In this document: positions 1 through 4,910 of the stretch, piece after piece
How the letters are laid out: each line of letters starts with the position of its first letter
Numbering within the stretch: position 1 is the first letter of the stretch
DNA from: a virus
Lineage: Duplodnaviria; Heunggongvirae; Uroviricota; Caudoviricetes
Virus record (IMG/VR): IMGVR_UViG_2671180439_000002
Location: 1-4,910 of that record
DNA length: 4,910 nt
Strand: one strand, 5' to 3'
The notes under the pieces: model-generated
The model's database searches: none
Seen by the model: the letters and a program-made list of their open reading frames with translations, nothing else
Told to the model about the DNA's origin: nothing
Program-made: the position numbers and the translations under genes

Positions 1-267
1 TGTTCAGCAGATTATCAGGCGCAACTGAAGCGGCATAATCTGCGTGGAAGTATGAGCGCAAAAGGTTGCTGCTACGATAATGCCTGCGTGGAAAGCTTCT
101 TTCATTCGCTGAAAGTGGAATGTATCCATGGAGAACACTTTATCAGCCGGGAAATAATGCGGGCAACGGTGTTTAATTATATCGAATGTGATTACAATCG
201 GTGGCGGCGGCACAGTTGGTGTGGCGGCCTCAGTCCGGAACAATTTGAAAACAAGAACCTCGCTTAG
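1..267 (+). CDS. insF: IS3 transposase OrfB (InsF-type, DDE integrase domain), C-terminal fragment; 5' end outside the window
   Basis: The reading frame is open from nt 1 with no stop until TAG at 265-267; the track ORF 52..267 is the same frame from an internal Met. The C-terminal motif ...[24 protein letters not shown] is characteristic of IS3 OrfB. Confidence 0.85.
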
Positions 268-297
268 GCCTGTGTCCATATTACGTGGGTAGGATCA
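259..297 (+). repeat. IS3 right terminal inverted repeat (IRR), approximate extent
   Basis: The last ~39 bp of the element end in ...CCATATTACGTGGGTAGGATCA at 297, the reverse complement of the TGATCCTACCCACG... type IS3 terminus. The left IR is not in the window, so the extent is from memory of IS3 only. Confidence 0.55.
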
Positions 298-507
298 GTT
301 CAATGTGATTTTTAAGACGTACTTTGAAGTTTTCCATGCATCCTCCATGCAAAGTGAAAACCTGCTGTTAAATCAAAGCAAGTCACAATCCCGGATAGGC
401 TTCATACAAGCCAATCCCCCACAGGGATTGAGTTATGCAAGCGAATCAATCTCAGAGCTTTTAACATGTATGGAGCTTAGAGATATTGTCCGTTAGACCA
501 TATAAGC

Positions 508-984
508 TTAAGCTCTGGCTTTCGTTTGTTTTTTTCCATCTTCCTCCTGCTCTGCCCATCTCCTTATCTTCATCTCTAATGAGTCTAAATATGCTTTAGC
601 ATCGCTATCTACCCAGCCAGGTATACGCTGTCCTTGCTCTAAGAGGACAAAATCAATGATAGCCTTTTTTTCTCTCGAAGCCTTATTATAGAGCTCGTCA
701 ATAGAACCATTTTTAACTATGGGATCTGTTGCGGGCTCACATGTATCAGTTAGCGGGTATCCCTTTAGTCCCCAGTGCTCGGGGCCCACAACATCAGAAA
801 AGTAGTTCCAAAGCTCTGGTAGCTTCTCTTTCGATATGGAGCCTTTATTGATCCAGTCATGGATTGATGGGGGTTTTATTTTGAAATGACGTGCGATTTC
901 CGCCTTACTCTTGGCAGAACCTATTGAAAGCTTCTTGTCTATGGCCTGCTCGATCGCTCGGCCCAATTCTTTACCACTAAGCAT
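508..984 (-). CDS. racR: RacR-like prophage repressor, 158 aa, N-terminal HTH and no S24 peptidase domain
   Basis: ATG at 982-984 (complement) with a GAGGA Shine-Dalgarno upstream; stop TAA at 508-510. The N-terminus carries a CI/XRE-like helix-turn-helix (SKAEIARHFKIKPPSIHDWINKG). It is transcribed divergently from a Cro-like and a CII-like gene, matching the racR-ydaS-ydaT arrangement of the E. coli Rac prophage, and has the same length as K-12 RacR (from memory). Confidence 0.7.
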   Translation of the reverse strand: MLSGKELGRAIEQAIDKKLSIGSAKSKAEIARHFKIKPPSIHDWINKGSISKEKLPELWNYFSDVVGPEHWGLKGYPLTDTCEPATDPIVKNGSIDELYNKASREKKAIIDFVLLEQGQRIPGWVDSDAKAYLDSLEMKIRRWAEQEEDGKKQTKARA

Positions 985-1085
985 TGCCTAATAATCCTCA
1001 TAACCTATAGCTTAGGCAATTCCTATTGATTGTTTATTAGGCTTAGCCTAATATCTGCTTGTGTGGAAATCATAGGAATCCGTTT
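985..1085. promoter_or_regulatory. Divergent promoter/operator region between the repressor gene and the cro-like gene
   Basis: A 101-bp AT-rich intergenic region between divergent start codons. Candidate rightward promoter: -35 TTGATT (1026-1031), 17-bp spacer, -10 TAATAT (1049-1054). The 8-mer GCCTAATA or its complement occurs three times (986-993, 1035-1042, 1046-1053). A second inverted pair is AATTCCTAT (1018-1026) and ATAGGAATC (1072-1080). Confidence 0.5.
1035..1053. promoter_or_regulatory. Candidate operator: perfect 8-3-8 inverted repeat TATTAGGC-tta-GCCTAATA
   Basis: The two arms are exact reverse complements in the sequence. The repeat lies in the spacer and -10 of the putative rightward promoter, where a repressor operator would be expected. 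Confidence 0.5.
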
Positions 1086-1349
1086 ATGAGAAGTAGCCTT
1101 GAAGCAATCAGTGAAGCCTGCCGCATTGTTGGGGGACAAGCCGCTTTGTCAAGGAATCTAGGCATCTCATCACCAACAGTGAATCAATGGACAACGGGCA
1201 TTAGGCAAATACCTGCGGAACGATGTCCTGCGATTGAGAAAGCTACTGGTGGTGCTGTCACCTGCGAAGAGCTTCGTCCTGACATTGACTGGGCCTATTT
1301 AAGAGGTGCAGCAATGCGAAAGCTTAATGTCACTGCATCAAATTTGTAA
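1086..1349 (+). CDS. ydaS: Cro-like HTH regulator of the YdaS family, 87 aa from ATG 1086
   Basis: ATG at 1086 is preceded by AGGA (1074-1077); the track ORF begins at an upstream TTG (1059) with no Shine-Dalgarno, so 1086 is preferred. The motif GGQAALSRNLGISSPTVNQWTTGIRQIPAERCPAIEKATGG is typical of YdaS/Cro-like prophage proteins. Stop TAA at 1347-1349. Confidence 0.7.
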   Translation: MRSSLEAISEACRIVGGQAALSRNLGISSPTVNQWTTGIRQIPAERCPAIEKATGGAVTCEELRPDIDWAYLRGAAMRKLNVTASNL

Positions 1350-1377
1350 CTACCACCCGAGTTTGAAAGGAGTAGGT

Positions 1378-1830
1378 ATGAACCTCAAAGAAGTCGTGAA
1401 ATCTATGTGCAAAGCATATCCAGGTGGGCGCGAAGCAATGGCTGGCGCACTGGGAATGACGGTGACGCAGTTTAACAACAACCTTTACGAGAAAAACGGC
1501 TGTCGTTTCTTCGAAGTCAGCGAACTGGAAGCGATGGAGGACATCTCGAATACATCTCACCTGGCTGAATATTTTGCCCGCCGTCGTGGTGCTCTGCTGG
1601 TGGATGTTCCGCACCTGGAAGAACTGGACCGCGTGGACTTGTTTAGCCGGGCAATGCGTACCTCTGCCGCCAGGGGGCAGGTTGATCAGATTATCGAACA
1701 GGCGCTTGAAGATGGCGTTATTGAAAGGCACGAGGCCGAAGAAATCATGGTGCATCACCGCCGTCACCTGGCAGCTCGTGAAGAAGAGATTGCCGCAATC
1801 ATCACGCTTTTTTCACGCAAAAAGAAGTGA
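1378..1830 (+). CDS. CII-like / YdaT-like prophage regulatory protein, 150 aa
   Basis: ATG at 1378 follows a strong Shine-Dalgarno AAGGAG (1367-1372) with 5-nt spacing; the track ORF from 1306 overlaps the upstream gene and lacks an SD. It sits immediately after the cro-like gene as cII does in lambdoid switches. The N-terminal region (GGREAMAGALGMTVTQFNNNLYEKNG) is HTH-like; the C-terminus is helical and charged. Stop TGA at 1828-1830. Confidence 0.65.
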   Translation: MNLKEVVKSMCKAYPGGREAMAGALGMTVTQFNNNLYEKNGCRFFEVSELEAMEDISNTSHLAEYFARRRGALLVDVPHLEELDRVDLFSRAMRTSAARGQVDQIIEQALEDGVIERHEAEEIMVHHRRHLAAREEEIAAIITLFSRKKK

Positions 1831-1858
1831 CGCCAGCGAGTTGCAGCTCCTGGCGTCG
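1828..1858 (+). other. Stem-loop between the CII-like gene and dam; no U-tract
   Basis: GACGCCAG (1829-1836) pairs with CTGGCGTC (1850-1857), with an inner GAG/CTC pair (1838-1840 with 1847-1849). It overlaps the stop of the upstream gene and the GTG at 1858. No T-run follows, so it is not a canonical intrinsic terminator. Confidence 0.3.
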
Positions 1859-2697
1859 TGGCGTGTCGTTATCAGTGGAGATTACTAACGCATGAACAGT
1901 TTATCAACACAATACCGCAGGTCGCAACTTGTAGCGCGGCCAGTTCCTGGTGGAGCAGGGCCGGTGCAGTTCGTGTAGAGCCATTCGTTGGTGGTGGGTC
2001 GGTATTCCTGAACAGCGAAAAGCACGCAGATTACCTGCTGGCGGACGTTAACCCGGACCTGATTAATCTGTATCAGATGTTAGCGGTCGTGCCGGATGAA
2101 GTGGAATTGAAGGCCCGCTGGATGTTCGAGCACATGCGGTCACCAGAGCGCTATGAGCTGATCCGTTCCGAGTTCAACTCTCAGACGCTGGATGCTACTG
2201 AACGCGCAGCTGCATTCCTGTATCTCAACCGGCATTGCTTCAATGGTCTGATGCGCTACAACCAGGCGAACAAGTTCAATGTGGGCTGGGGAGGCTACAA
2301 GGCTCCGTATTACCCGATGGATGAGATGAAAGCCTTCGCGGCTATGGCGCATAACTGCGTATTCATGACGGCTGATTACCGCCGGACAATCAGCCTGGCC
2401 GGGAAAGGGGATGTGGTTTACTGCGATCCGCCTTACGAACCGATGCCGGGAACAACCGGATTCACCGCCTACGCCGCTGGTGGTTTTAACTGGGAGAACC
2501 AGGTAGACCTGGCGAAGCAATGCGTATCAGCCTTTCACCGTGGGGCTCGGGTAGTGATTTCTAACTCATCTGCACCGAAGGTTCTCGACCTGTACCGGGA
2601 GCATGGTTTTAACCTGCAATTCATCAACGCGCGCCGTTCGATCTCCTGCAAAAGCAGTACGCGGGAAGTCGCAAAAGACGTTGTAGCGATCCTTTAA
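1858..2697 (+). CDS. dam: Dam-family N6-adenine DNA methyltransferase (prophage-borne); 5' end uncertain, possibly frameshifted
   Basis: From ~nt 1973 the translation aligns well with E. coli Dam: VEPFVGGGSVFLN (AdoMet motif I), AFLYLNR, and the catalytic DPPY motif in VVYCDPPYEP. The track start is a GTG (1858) without a Shine-Dalgarno, and the conserved N-terminal KWAGGK-type motif is absent in this frame. An SD-preceded ATG at 1892 is in the +2 frame and hits a stop at 1976-1978. Stop TAA at 2695-2697. Confidence 0.75.
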   Translation: MACRYQWRLLTHEQFINTIPQVATCSAASSWWSRAGAVRVEPFVGGGSVFLNSEKHADYLLADVNPDLINLYQMLAVVPDEVELKARWMFEHMRSPERYELIRSEFNSQTLDATERAAAFLYLNRHCFNGLMRYNQANKFNVGWGGYKAPYYPMDEMKAFAAMAHNCVFMTADYRRTISLAGKGDVVYCDPPYEPMPGTTGFTAYAAGGFNWENQVDLAKQCVSAFHRGARVVISNSSAPKVLDLYREHGFNLQFINARRSISCKSSTREVAKDVVAIL

Positions 2698-2706
2698 GGG
2701 GGCTAA

Positions 2707-3549
2707 ATGAAACTGACTTTACCATTTCCACCGAGCGTAAATAGTTACTGGCGCGCCCCGAGCAAGGGACCGCTGAAAGGCAGGCATCTGGTAAGCGAGA
2801 CAGGGCGCAAGTTCCAGCAGGCAGCGAGAGCGGCGATTATTGAGCAACTGCGGGCCGTTCCCCGGCCATCCTCAGATCTGGCCGAGGTTCACATAAACGT
2901 TGTTGAGGGCGCGGGGCTTGAGCTTGATCCTGATGATGATTCACAGGTTCTTAAAGCGATTGGTGGCGGTCGCCTGCTTAATATTGTCACCTTTACTAAG
3001 TCAGGGACTTACACTCCAACTAAAGGGACGAAAAGAGTGCGGGTGAAAGTTTGGGGAGCGGGGGGAGGTGGCCAGAATGCTCCAGTTAGTGTGGGCGCAT
3101 CTGGAGGTTGTGCTGGTGGATTTTCGGAAGGGTTATTTAATATTTCTGATAACGAAACTATATCTGTGACGATAGGTACTGGTGGCAGTGCTGTTGCTGC
3201 TGGTGTCTCGTCTAAAGGCGGGAATGGTGGTGATACAAGGTTCGGGAGTTTAATCTCAGCTACTGGAGGGAGTGGTGGCGGGGCTACAGTTCCTGCTGGA
3301 GGTATCGGAAGTGGCGGGAACATTTTAAATATTACTGGCGGAATATCTCAAGGTGGTCTGTATTATGGTTCTGATGCTTTTATTGGCGGGGCTGGAGGAT
3401 CTGCATTTTCATCAACGGGTGGCAATGGCCACTTCGGTAGTTCTGGCGATGATGGCGGTTTCCCCGGCTCAGGTGGTGCCGGGGGGAATGGTAACTATTC
3501 ATCAGGAAAAGGAGCGAATGGTTTAGTTTACCTTGAAGAGTTTTCCTGA
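2707..3549 (+). CDS. Chimeric ORF: RusA-like N-terminus (about aa 1-85) fused in frame to a glycine-rich tail-fibre-type domain (about aa 95-280)
   Basis: ATG at 2707 follows AAGGGGG. The N-terminus (LTLPFPPSVNSYWR ... LELDPDDDSQVLKA) resembles RusA (LPWPPSNNRYYR ... DLDNLQKA), but the downstream catalytic Asp region is missing. From ~nt 2975 the ORF is glycine-rich (TYTPTKGTKRVRVKVWGAGGGG ... GANGLVYLEEF), like phage tail-fibre glycine-rich domains. Codon usage becomes A/T-rich at third positions after the junction. Stop TGA at 3547-3549. Confidence 0.6.
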   Translation: MKLTLPFPPSVNSYWRAPSKGPLKGRHLVSETGRKFQQAARAAIIEQLRAVPRPSSDLAEVHINVVEGAGLELDPDDDSQVLKAIGGGRLLNIVTFTKSGTYTPTKGTKRVRVKVWGAGGGGQNAPVSVGASGGCAGGFSEGLFNISDNETISVTIGTGGSAVAAGVSSKGGNGGDTRFGSLISATGGSGGGATVPAGGIGSGGNILNITGGISQGGLYYGSDAFIGGAGGSAFSSTGGNGHFGSSGDDGGFPGSGGAGGNGNYSSGKGANGLVYLEEFS

Positions 3550-4619
3550 TTATTTTTGCTTTGAGCGTCCGCCCTTATTTTTGCTCTAATTTTAATTAGT
3601 GGCTTGTCTATTAATATTACACAAACGATCCCAAGTGCAATTGATATTGGGTAGCCTAATAAAAAGATGGATAAGCCACGATTTTCACCACCAATAGCAA
3701 GCCATGCTAGAAATCCACCAAAATATTGACAAAGAAAAATTGGATAGGCCAGGTCACCAAACCACTTGAGTATTTTCTCAAGATGTATGTTTGTCTTTAT
3801 TTTTAATAATACCAGGGTTGTAAACAATGCTATTACATTATTGGTGTAGTAAAGTATTATGTTGTACTGACCTAATGGATTAATTGTATATAAATGCCAA
3901 TTGGTAATAAAAATCCCGATGCAAATAAATGTTATTAAAAAAGCTTTGTGTGGAGAAAGATACATAGCTTTGAACTTTCTATGGGCAAAATAACCCAGAG
4001 AACCCATGCTAAAAGGAAGTGTTGCAGCAAGGAATGGGAAATACGCCATATCAAAAGAATGGTGTACTACATATACGTAAGCATGATAAAGCAGTGAAAG
4101 CAGAATCGACGTAATGGCTGTAAATTTATTTCGGGCTATGAAAAGCCACAATAAAAAATAACATGTTATCTCAACACCCACTGACCATGATGATGTGACT
4201 ATTCTGAATCTATTACCATCAATAGCAAAGTGATAAATGGATGAAAAGGCACCGAATGGATTTGCTACAGCATTATCAGAAAGGAAAGCCCAGGGGAAGA
4301 TTAAGAGGTTTCCTAATAAATCTCCAGGTAAGAAATTGCCTGTCCAGTTTGAGTGGAATTCCTTTGCGGATGGAATTAATTTTATAATAAGAAAGCCCAT
4401 GACGAGAAAAAATATATATGCCGGGAATAACCTCAGTATTCTATTTTTCCAAAACATAGAGAAGTTGAACTTGTATGTTTCATGCAAAATGTATGTTATT
4501 AAAAAACCACTAATAACATAGAAGCAATTCACTGCAAAGTTGCCAAGTGCAGGTATGCGAGCCGTTAAGTGAAAAGCAATGACGCACGATGCCAAAAAAA
4601 ACCTTATTAGGCCAAGCAT
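3528..4619 (-). CDS. Acyltransferase family 3 integral membrane protein, 363 aa; putative O-antigen/polysaccharide O-acetyltransferase (Oac/OafA-like moron)
   Basis: Highly hydrophobic with multiple predicted TM helices. The N-terminal VIAFH motif and the FWKNRILRLFPAYIFF motif fit the family consensus (conserved His in TM1; RxxRIxPxY loop). The gene is very AT-rich compared with its flanks. ATG at 4617-4619 (complement), stop TAA at 3528-3530 (complement). Confidence 0.75.
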   Translation of the reverse strand: MLGLIRFFLASCVIAFHLTARIPALGNFAVNCFYVISGFLITYILHETYKFNFSMFWKNRILRLFPAYIFFLVMGFLIIKLIPSAKEFHSNWTGNFLPGDLLGNLLIFPWAFLSDNAVANPFGAFSSIYHFAIDGNRFRIVTSSWSVGVEITCYFLLWLFIARNKFTAITSILLSLLYHAYVYVVHHSFDMAYFPFLAATLPFSMGSLGYFAHRKFKAMYLSPHKAFLITFICIGIFITNWHLYTINPLGQYNIILYYTNNVIALFTTLVLLKIKTNIHLEKILKWFGDLAYPIFLCQYFGGFLAWLAIGGENRGLSIFLLGYPISIALGIVCVILIDKPLIKIRAKIRADAQSKNNQENSSR

Positions 4620-4906
4620 TATTTTATCTCCGCGCCAATATCGCGCATTTTATTTATTACATTGTTAAGTTGCTCATCAGACAGAACAAGCTGAGCTGCA
4701 ATATAAAACAGTATGTGTCTTGACATTACCCTGGGGCTCTCTCCGCCAGTGTATTTCCGCCATTGGCTATCGCTGGCTACACCTGCGAGCCCTGCCATTT
4801 GGTTTCCGGAGTAATTTAGTGCGGATTTCAGTCTGGCTAAATCTTCCTGCGTTGGAGGGGTGTATTTATTTATTAAAATCATTCTCTTATTTAACCGTTT
4901 AAACAC
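4619..4906 (-). CDS. Small XRE-type HTH protein (HigA/YiaG-like); start uncertain and frame open to the window edge
   Basis: The HTH-like segment LNYSGNQMAGLAGVASDSQWRKYTGGESPRVMSRHILFYIAAQLVL is typical of XRE regulators. Its stop codon TAA (4619-4621, complement) overlaps the acyltransferase ATG as TAATG. The track start at 4904-4906 is a GTG and the next codon upstream is not a stop, so the true start may be the ATG at 4880-4882 or lie beyond the window. Confidence 0.5.
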   Translation of the reverse strand: MFKRLNKRMILINKYTPPTQEDLARLKSALNYSGNQMAGLAGVASDSQWRKYTGGESPRVMSRHILFYIAAQLVLSDEQLNNVINKMRDIGAEIK

Positions 4907-4910
4907 GTAA

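Follow-up and report, generated by a model that had tools for sequence, protein, structure and literature searches.

Among the open reading frames of this locus, one carries the conserved core of a Dam-type DNA adenine methyltransferase behind an unusual 5' end, and the question is whether it is a complete gene with a small lesion, an enzyme with an altered N terminus, or what was left by a larger loss. The stretch that was analyzed, here called the window, comprises 4,910 nucleotides of the viral record IMGVR_UViG_2671180439_000002. The initial annotation, made from these letters alone, had proposed a small frameshift near positions 1950 to 1975 that turned the gene into a pseudogene or gave an enzyme with an altered N terminus. 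Comparison with intact relatives upholds the 5' damage, its place, and the probable pseudogene status but not the mechanism, as 1.26 to 1.54 kb of DNA are missing. The gene, referred to here as dam', is very probably a 5'-truncated remnant generated by one illegitimate-recombination deletion in a lambdoid prophage of the Klebsiella/Escherichia coli type, and it is probably an inactive pseudogene. As such, it represents routine prophage decay, the affected gene being a conventional phage Dam (D12 class, alpha group).

Reading frame and start signals of dam'

The Dam frame is closed upstream by a TGA at 1828 to 1830, which is also the stop codon of an intact cII-like regulator gene (positions 1378 to 1830, plus strand) encoding 150 amino acids (Pfam PF06892, Phage_CP76, E=2.4e-14; YmfL family according to PGAP). 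This gene and dam' share one reading frame, with the TGA between them. The Dam-frame open reading frame that follows (1858 to 2697, plus strand) encodes a chimera of 279 amino acids, made up of 39 residues derived from an intergenic spacer, a junction codon in which native I30 has become V, and native Dam residues 31 to 269. The retained native codons, together with the stop codon, occupy positions 1978 to 2697 on the plus strand and are free of stops and frameshifts. They encode motif I, the AdoMet-binding loop (EPFxGxGxV, present as EPFVGGGSVF at 1978 to 2007), the region that aligns to the DNA-recognition hairpin of E. coli Dam (EcoDam; the TRD region), and catalytic motif IV (DPPY at 2425 to 2436). 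The core is therefore intact and open to 2697, as had been reported. Two properties of this open reading frame speak against a pseudogene: the 240 retained codons are fully open and are 97 to 98% identical to functional-looking alleles, and an in-frame GTG exists.

That GTG, at 1858, is the only ATG, GTG, or TTG codon in the Dam frame ahead of motif I, and the earlier description of it as a start without a Shine-Dalgarno (SD) sequence was borne out. Its upstream region pairs with the 3' end of 16S rRNA at -2.2 kcal/mol and a spacing of 16 nt, which does not amount to a usable SD sequence. An ATC at 1903, which has been used as a start in one database entry (see below), likewise has no SD sequence (anti-SD pairing of +0.4 kcal/mol). 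The only good SD sequence in the region is a GGAG at 1877 to 1880, which is separated by an 11-nt spacer from an ATG at 1892 (anti-SD duplex of -6.4 kcal/mol). This ATG opens a different frame of 28 amino acids that ends at a TAG at 1976 to 1978, again in agreement with the initial annotation. Further in-frame starts for Dam (CTG at 2008, ATG at 2077, and later codons) fall downstream of motif I.

In intact phages, the native dam gene starts with a GGGG SD sequence (about -6 kcal/mol) and an ATG that overlaps the upstream stop codon as ATGA, an arrangement that suggests translational coupling. The native SD sequence, the ATG, and the ATGA overlap are all deleted in the window, and dam' has no canonical start codon accompanied by either a ribosome binding site or coupling. 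The remaining 240 codons thus appear to be without a native or efficient initiation signal, and translation would be possible only via the GTG at 1858, the ATC at 1903, or starts beyond motif I. A scan of positions 900 to 2800 for promoters and terminators found sites no more numerous than in shuffled sequence. Were repression relieved, the early rightward promoter might still drive transcription of the dam remnant, a further point against a pseudogene.

Deletion junction and flanking arms

A megablast search of positions 1780 to 2720 against phage genomes returned 23 records, mostly from Klebsiella phages and including two Escherichia phages. In all 23 records the match opens at window position 1976, and each contains a second match elsewhere. 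Local BLAST comparisons were made against four intact relatives, namely, Escherichia phage vB_EcoS-733R5, Klebsiella phage ST101-KPC2phi6.3, and the prophages of E. coli ES4 and E. coli YJ4. The left arm of the window (1381 to 1977), whose last complete gene is the cII-like gene, is collinear with that gene and its downstream spacer in all four relatives, ungapped and at 94.5 to 99.3% identity. The right arm (1976 to 2895) follows dam in the same collinear fashion, starting at codon 30 and extending into rusA, also in all four, at ~97.6 to 97.8% identity. The breakpoints are the same in the four relatives, and the arms overlap by 2 nt. Between the arms, the intact genomes contain 1,329 bp (vB_EcoS-733R5 and YJ4), 1,538 bp (ST101-KPC2phi6.3), or 1,260 bp (ES4).

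When the window was aligned simultaneously with both phage arms, it could be followed along the left arm up to ...GTGTA and along the right arm from TAGAGCC..., with only the dinucleotide TA (1976 to 1977) common to both. The junction connects the second base of dam codon 30 with sequence 147 nt beyond the end of the cII-like (YmfL) gene, and the codon has changed from Ile to Val. The break at 1976/1977 is a genuine homology discontinuity and not a chance pattern, and the comparison shows that dam lost its 5' end, and the prophage its replication module, through one deletion of ~1.3 kb with a 2-nt microhomology.

The gene order annotated in the intact relatives is YmfL, DUF4222, replication protein, Dam, and RusA. 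Their Dam proteins, which include URC09953.1 (vB_EcoS-733R5), QBQ71614.1 (ST101-KPC2phi6.3), and WP_309779728.1 (E. coli ES4 prophage), are 269 to 274 amino acids long and begin MSKPFLKWAGGKY... The window resembles these lambdoid Klebsiella and E. coli loci in the DNA of codons 31 to 269 (1978 to 2697, ~97 to 98% identical), in having the same rusA gene downstream, and in having the same cII-like gene and spacer upstream. It differs from them in the deletion of the SD sequence, ATG, and codons 1 to 29 of dam (encoding MSKPFLKWAGGKYTQLADLFVHIPAGKRL), together with the DUF4222 gene and the O-like replication-initiator gene that precede dam. The O-like gene of the intact relatives holds 6.3 copies of a 15-bp iteron, which probably mark the replication origin.

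The sequence now fused to dam as a foreign leader (1831 to 1977) is equivalent to the opening 147 nt of an intergenic spacer, ~240 nt long, that lies between the cII-like and DUF4222 genes of intact phages. It is 99 to 100% identical to the spacer that lies behind their cII-like gene, and their dam gene is found more than 1.2 kb further on. Nothing is annotated in the spacer of the ES4 and YJ4 prophages, and in vB_EcoS-733R5 and ST101-KPC2phi6.3 the Dam-frame open reading frame of the spacer ends at a stop after 63 codons. The 39 residues MACRYQW...AVR and the 28 residues beginning MNSLST both result from translating this spacer, to which no gene has been assigned in intact prophages. The 28-amino-acid open reading frame with the GGAG SD sequence (1892 to 1978, plus strand) is the remnant of a spacer open reading frame of 111 amino acids, which is open in three intact relatives and runs partly across the annotated DUF4222 gene in a different frame. 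Neither has a Pfam match. The longer one is left unannotated by PGAP and is probably spurious; the remnant is unrelated to Dam and probably noncoding. The TAG that ends the remnant is itself a product of the junction, because the window follows the left arm as far as its shared TA and takes the next base from the right arm.

The small-lesion model holds that a complete dam gene with its true start at ATG 1892 was frameshifted by an indel of 1 to 2 nt or ~35 to 40 nt near 1950 to 1975. It is favored by the sole good SD sequence of the region, which precedes this ATG, and by a frame that stops exactly where the Dam frame takes over. However, if positions 1831 to 1975 were the beginning of dam, they should resemble the 88 nt that the gene has lost, and no DNA similarity was found (local score of 16 against a shuffle mean of 14.3, with 109 to 121 of 500 shuffles scoring equally well or better). 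Protein frames 1 and 2 of the same stretch showed no similarity to the 29 lost Dam residues, and frame 3, which contains two stops, gave a marginal p of ~0.02 that is uncorrected. In intact phages the same positions form the spacer that follows the cII-like gene. The TAG was made by the junction, and the MNSLST frame opens a spacer open reading frame and not Dam. Alignment to intact dam shows that no indel of either size can restore one frame, the first 88 nt of the gene being gone. The frameshift was rejected on the basis of the collinearity with the upstream spacer and the lack of residual similarity to the dam 5' end, and we regard it as extremely improbable. The locus has instead what is expected of a 5'-truncated gene made by deletion: homology that starts internally, flanks that are collinear across the gap, and fused upstream sequence bearing no relation to what the gene lost at its 5' end. 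As this case illustrates, a large deletion junction and not a frameshift can lie behind an ATG that has an SD sequence and opens a different frame beside a conserved core.

A sequencing or assembly error at the junction, which the initial annotation had also considered, has the oddity of the locus in its favor and nothing else. A junction-spanning query of 551 nt and the 4.6-kb stretch from 298 to 4910 each have matches of 100% identity in 10 of the 5,426 complete E. coli genomes; the 10 genomes are from isolates obtained from pig, dog, human, river water, and salad. The exact 279-amino-acid product is encoded on 619 contigs, and the 264-amino-acid version predicted by PGAP is encoded on 167. 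Independent metagenome contigs (L008 to L011) carry the junction in the same context. The 10 complete genomes and 619 contigs exclude such an error for all practical purposes. In about 45 further E. coli genomes the two arms are present at separate places, and 20 genomes match the intact arrangement of vB_EcoS-733R5 over at least 80% of its length.

It is also conceivable that the joint arose between two different phages by exchange of mosaic modules and not by deletion within one prophage. Lambdoid phages are mosaic, and the left arm is 99.3% identical to that of ES4, whereas the right arm is only 97.8% identical, so that the closest relatives of the two arms might differ. Against this, the order and orientation of the two arms are conserved across all intact relatives examined, and the outcome is the same either way, with dam cut at codon 30 and the replication module lost. 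We consider an interphage joint very unlikely.

A tRNA-like or other RNA gene at the breakpoint was considered as well, because the phage sequence immediately beyond the left breakpoint looked like the T-arm and acceptor end of a tRNA, and was rejected. ARAGORN detected no tRNA in the window or in the four intact loci. An Rfam E-value scan returned nothing in the window and, in the YJ4 prophage, only spurious matches of miRNA models to the iterons of the O gene.

Consequences of the lost N terminus

The Dam family profile (Pfam PF02086) is covered from position 23 to 253 of 253 by the window open reading frame and from 1 to 253 by the intact relative. The KWAGGK-type motif, the absence of which had been pointed out in the initial annotation, is indeed missing from the window. 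Of 120 homologue representatives, 115 carry it, and in all 113 in which both motifs were found, the distance from its start to motif I is exactly 24 residues. The five representatives without it are this allele (P0001 and P0014) and three shorter calls, whose first residues fall within motif I or immediately ahead of it. The full query is covered only by the cluster of this allele among the 120 representatives, with the others reaching at most 88%. Functional Dam homologues sharing the N terminus MACRYQWRLL would have argued against a damaged gene, but that N terminus occurs only in this E. coli deletion allele. Among 44 intact homologues (63 to 95% identical to P0002), 11 of the 29 lost residues are invariant (L6, K7, W8, A9, G10, G11, K12, L16, P24, R28, and L29), and 5 more are at least 90% conserved. 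By its sequence, the window dam departs from intact members of the family in profile coverage, N-terminal motif, and start signals.

The lost residues take in PFLKWAGGKY, a helix at residues 7 to 20, and half of strand beta1. In the AF2 model of the intact protein (pLDDT of 80.5 and pTM of 0.80), this helix and beta1 (residues 28 to 31) are formed. With the same homologue set, the window open reading frame was modeled with a pLDDT of 63.5 and a pTM of 0.49, with residues 1 to 53 and 55 to 64, including motif I, below 50; AF2 confidence should not be equated with stability, and five models of the intact protein spanned 62.7 to 80.5. The contrast between the two models is only suggestive of damage to the protein fold. 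The beta1 strand, which leads into motif I, is cut in the window open reading frame. Any product would be expected to lack the invariant LKWAGGK segment and the first helix, and the first beta-strand of its AdoMet-binding Rossmann fold would be interrupted.

The best-characterized point of comparison is EcoDam, a D12-class, alpha-group N6-adenine DNA methyltransferase of the same family (PF02086; PDB 2g1p and the 4rtj series). The intact phage relative aligns to EcoDam residues 5 to 267 (E=2.6e-61), whereas the window is without the segment equivalent to EcoDam residues ~1 to 31, K9 and W10 included. Presumably, W10 of EcoDam stacks on the cofactor, and W10 and the loop that follows it contact the cofactor. 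EcoDam K9, which corresponds to the deleted K7 here, is among the residues that recognize the first base pair of GATC (PMC4417163), and the K9A variant is active, with relaxed specificity (PMC6567924).

Changes that followed the deletion are few. Only 4 of 4,613 positions separate the window from L008, a deletion allele of ancestral-like character, and the event is therefore taken to be recent. All four differences lie within 34 bp of dam' (2148 to 2181) and change three residues. Two of the four differing states were found in the intact allele L012, and no exact donor of the 34-bp patch was found in complete E. coli genomes. The patch is probably the result of one short conversion or multinucleotide event, and it was therefore not counted as a sign of decay or relaxed selection. 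Relative to the four intact relatives, the window has three synonymous and three nonsynonymous private changes. Variants of the deletion allele include a G-to-R change in motif I (P0001), a change of DPPY to DPLY (P0134), and a frameshift before DPPY (P0014), each on one or two contigs and possibly due to assembly errors. These damaged variants are consistent with relaxed constraint.

An alternative to a pseudogene is that the chimera is expressed, from GTG 1858 or by readthrough of the TGA at 1828 to 1830, and is a working or neofunctional protein, such as a Dam whose specificity is relaxed by the loss of the K9 equivalent or a noncatalytic DNA binder. The 279 open codons, the intact motif I, TRD region, and DPPY, the activity of K9A EcoDam, and the persistence of the allele in hundreds of isolates would all fit such a protein. 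The loss, however, exceeds K9 and extends to the invariant W8-A-G-G-K12, helix 7 to 20, and half of beta1, and none of the 120 representatives looks full-length yet lacks the motif. In addition, there is no SD sequence, motif I, DPPY, or the frame has been lost in some carriers, and the persistence of the allele is explained by its recency. An expressed and working chimera is on these grounds very unlikely. The more specific proposal that it is made at a low level, from GTG 1858 or as a cII-like::Dam readthrough fusion, and confers methylation-independent DNA binding or, for want of the contact made by the K9 equivalent, relaxed adenine methylation is highly improbable. If it were true, a low-level active chimera would be an epigenetic or regulatory trait of the carriers and would explain why the open reading frame is open in hundreds of isolates.

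It is most likely that the dam remnant is an inactive pseudogene that is not made efficiently. Illegitimate recombination across the TA microhomology deleted ~1.3 kb within the prophage, taking with it the DUF4222 gene, the iteron-containing O-like gene, and the SD sequence, ATG, and codons 1 to 29 of dam. Without the native initiation signal, the remnant would be produced inefficiently, and any product would be inactive for want of the N-terminal part that binds AdoMet and DNA. The open reading frame would still be open only because the deletion is recent.

The surrounding prophage and the annotation of dam'

The sole noteworthy consequence of these findings concerns annotation quality, in that a truncated dam' is recorded as a complete methylase. 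RefSeq/PGAP lists a "DNA adenine methylase" of 264 amino acids (WP_047928994.1) that corresponds to window positions 1903 to 2697 on the plus strand (positions 10606 to 11400 of L003); it begins at the noncanonical ATC start and is not flagged as partial. Other pipelines start dam' at GTG 1858, giving 279-amino-acid entries such as AKM35534.1. PGAP flags the neighboring rusA' as incomplete but names dam' as a complete gene. Surveys of orphan or phage methyltransferases, interpretations of methylomes, and censuses of defense systems would count an enzyme that is almost certainly absent.

The rusA' fragment (2707 to 2895, plus strand) retains codons 1 to 63, forms the end of the right arm, and carries the PGAP flag "incomplete; missing C-terminus". 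It ends at a second deletion junction (2894/2895), again with a 2-nt overlap, at which rusA codon 63 is fused in frame to codon 44 of a Gly-rich tail-fiber-like gene. In E. coli HS, the same chromosomal site is occupied by a different prophage, in which this tail-fiber-like gene comes after the baseplate genes. The element has lost all replication, lysis, lambdoid structural, and late genes. Insertions of IS3, ISKpn26, or ISEc52 are present, with different IS elements upstream of the racR-like repressor gene depending on the strain. The surrounding element is a decayed mosaic prophage.

Remnants of this kind are familiar from E. coli K-12, in which prophage CPS-53 contains a methyltransferase fragment, yfdM, and replication-gene fragments that are 5'-truncated remnants. 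The element described here resembles such cryptic E. coli prophage remnants in its tRNA site, its internal deletions and IS insertions, and its gene fragments that are still called as genes. It differs from them in the unusual length of dam', of which 240 of 269 codons remain; the fragment still scores above the family thresholds, so that PGAP calls it complete, with an ATC start. In both of the genomes inspected, the element is located between tRNA-Ser/mtfA and yodB.

Spacer between the cII-like gene and dam'

The spacer between the cII-like gene (a YmfL-family regulator, 1378-1830, plus strand) and dam', the 5'-truncated remnant of the Dam methylase gene, occupies positions 1831-1977. In comparisons with two intact relatives, Escherichia phage vB_EcoS-733R5 and Klebsiella phage ST101-KPC2phi6.3, this 147-nt spacer differs at only 1-2 positions, whereas the neighbouring cII-like gene differs at 25-31, and the spacer may therefore be a conserved non-coding element. 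At 1828-1858, the minus strand can be read as a GC-rich hairpin, GACGCCAGGAG...CUCGCUGGCGUC, with UUCUUUUU after it. This looks like an intrinsic terminator whose position overlaps the stop codon of the cII-like gene, and a TTGATA on the same strand (1907-1902) is a possible -35 element. The arrangement of a terminator-like hairpin and a putative -35 element on the minus strand is reminiscent of the lambda oop antisense RNA. The candidate promoter/terminator unit was not flagged in a promoter scan of 900-2800, and an Rfam scan of the window returned no match.

The chimeric dam' open reading frame also continues in the frame of the cII-like gene (1378-2697). Only the TGA at 1828-30 and nine sense codons lie between the cII-like gene and the GTG at 1858, such that read-through of this stop codon would yield a fusion of the cII-like protein to Dam'.

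Clustered changes within dam'

Across 4,613 bp, the window and L008, a metagenome contig with an ancestral-like deletion allele, differ at only 4 positions, all of them inside 34 bp of dam' (2148-2181) and together changing three residues (D to E, G to R, and A to S). The chance of such clustering is P ~2e-6 under a model of independent, uniformly placed hits, and the patch is probably the product of a single short gene-conversion or multi-nucleotide event. An intact dam allele (L012) shows two of the four window states, and an exact donor was not found among complete E. coli genomes.

Deleted replication gene and the rusA' junction

Inside the O-like replication gene, which is deleted from the window, a 15-bp unit, TCTGACACGTCAAAA, occurs 6.3 times in tandem in the intact E. 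coli YJ4 prophage (L006, 2343-2437). The repeats code for an SDTSK repeat and are probably origin iterons. Rfam miRNA matches at this site were sub-threshold and spurious, arising from the repeats.

A second deletion junction lies at 2894/2895, within 2707-3549, where the two arms overlap by 2 nt. Codons 1-63 of rusA are joined in frame to a glycine-rich (PF21722), tail-fibre-like gene from codon 44 on, giving a chimeric open reading frame of 280 aa; the RefSeq annotation pipeline (PGAP) marks rusA' as partial. In E. coli HS, this chromosomal site is occupied by a different prophage, in which the tail-fibre-like gene comes after baseplate/YmfQ genes.

Insertion sequences and the immunity module

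Window positions 1-337 include the 3' end of an IS3 element, with the C terminus of transposase OrfB (52-267) and a terminal inverted repeat ending at 297. The element breaks a minus-strand HSDR_N "type I restriction endonuclease"-like gene some 13 codons past its ATG at 337; the gene is intact in L008 and in a complete-genome carrier (L004). Other carriers have an opposite-orientation IS3 near window position ~365, or ISKpn26 or ISEc52 nearby, and thus the region upstream of the racR-like repressor gene looks like a hot spot for insertion sequences.

The immunity module (508-1349) encodes a RacR-like repressor (158 aa, minus strand) and, facing it, a YdaS_toxin/Cro-like helix-turn-helix protein (87 aa; PF15943, E=2.7e-30). 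A repressor paired in this way with a toxic early gene can make a cryptic prophage remnant more stable, an effect that could be the reason the module has outlasted the replication and late genes.
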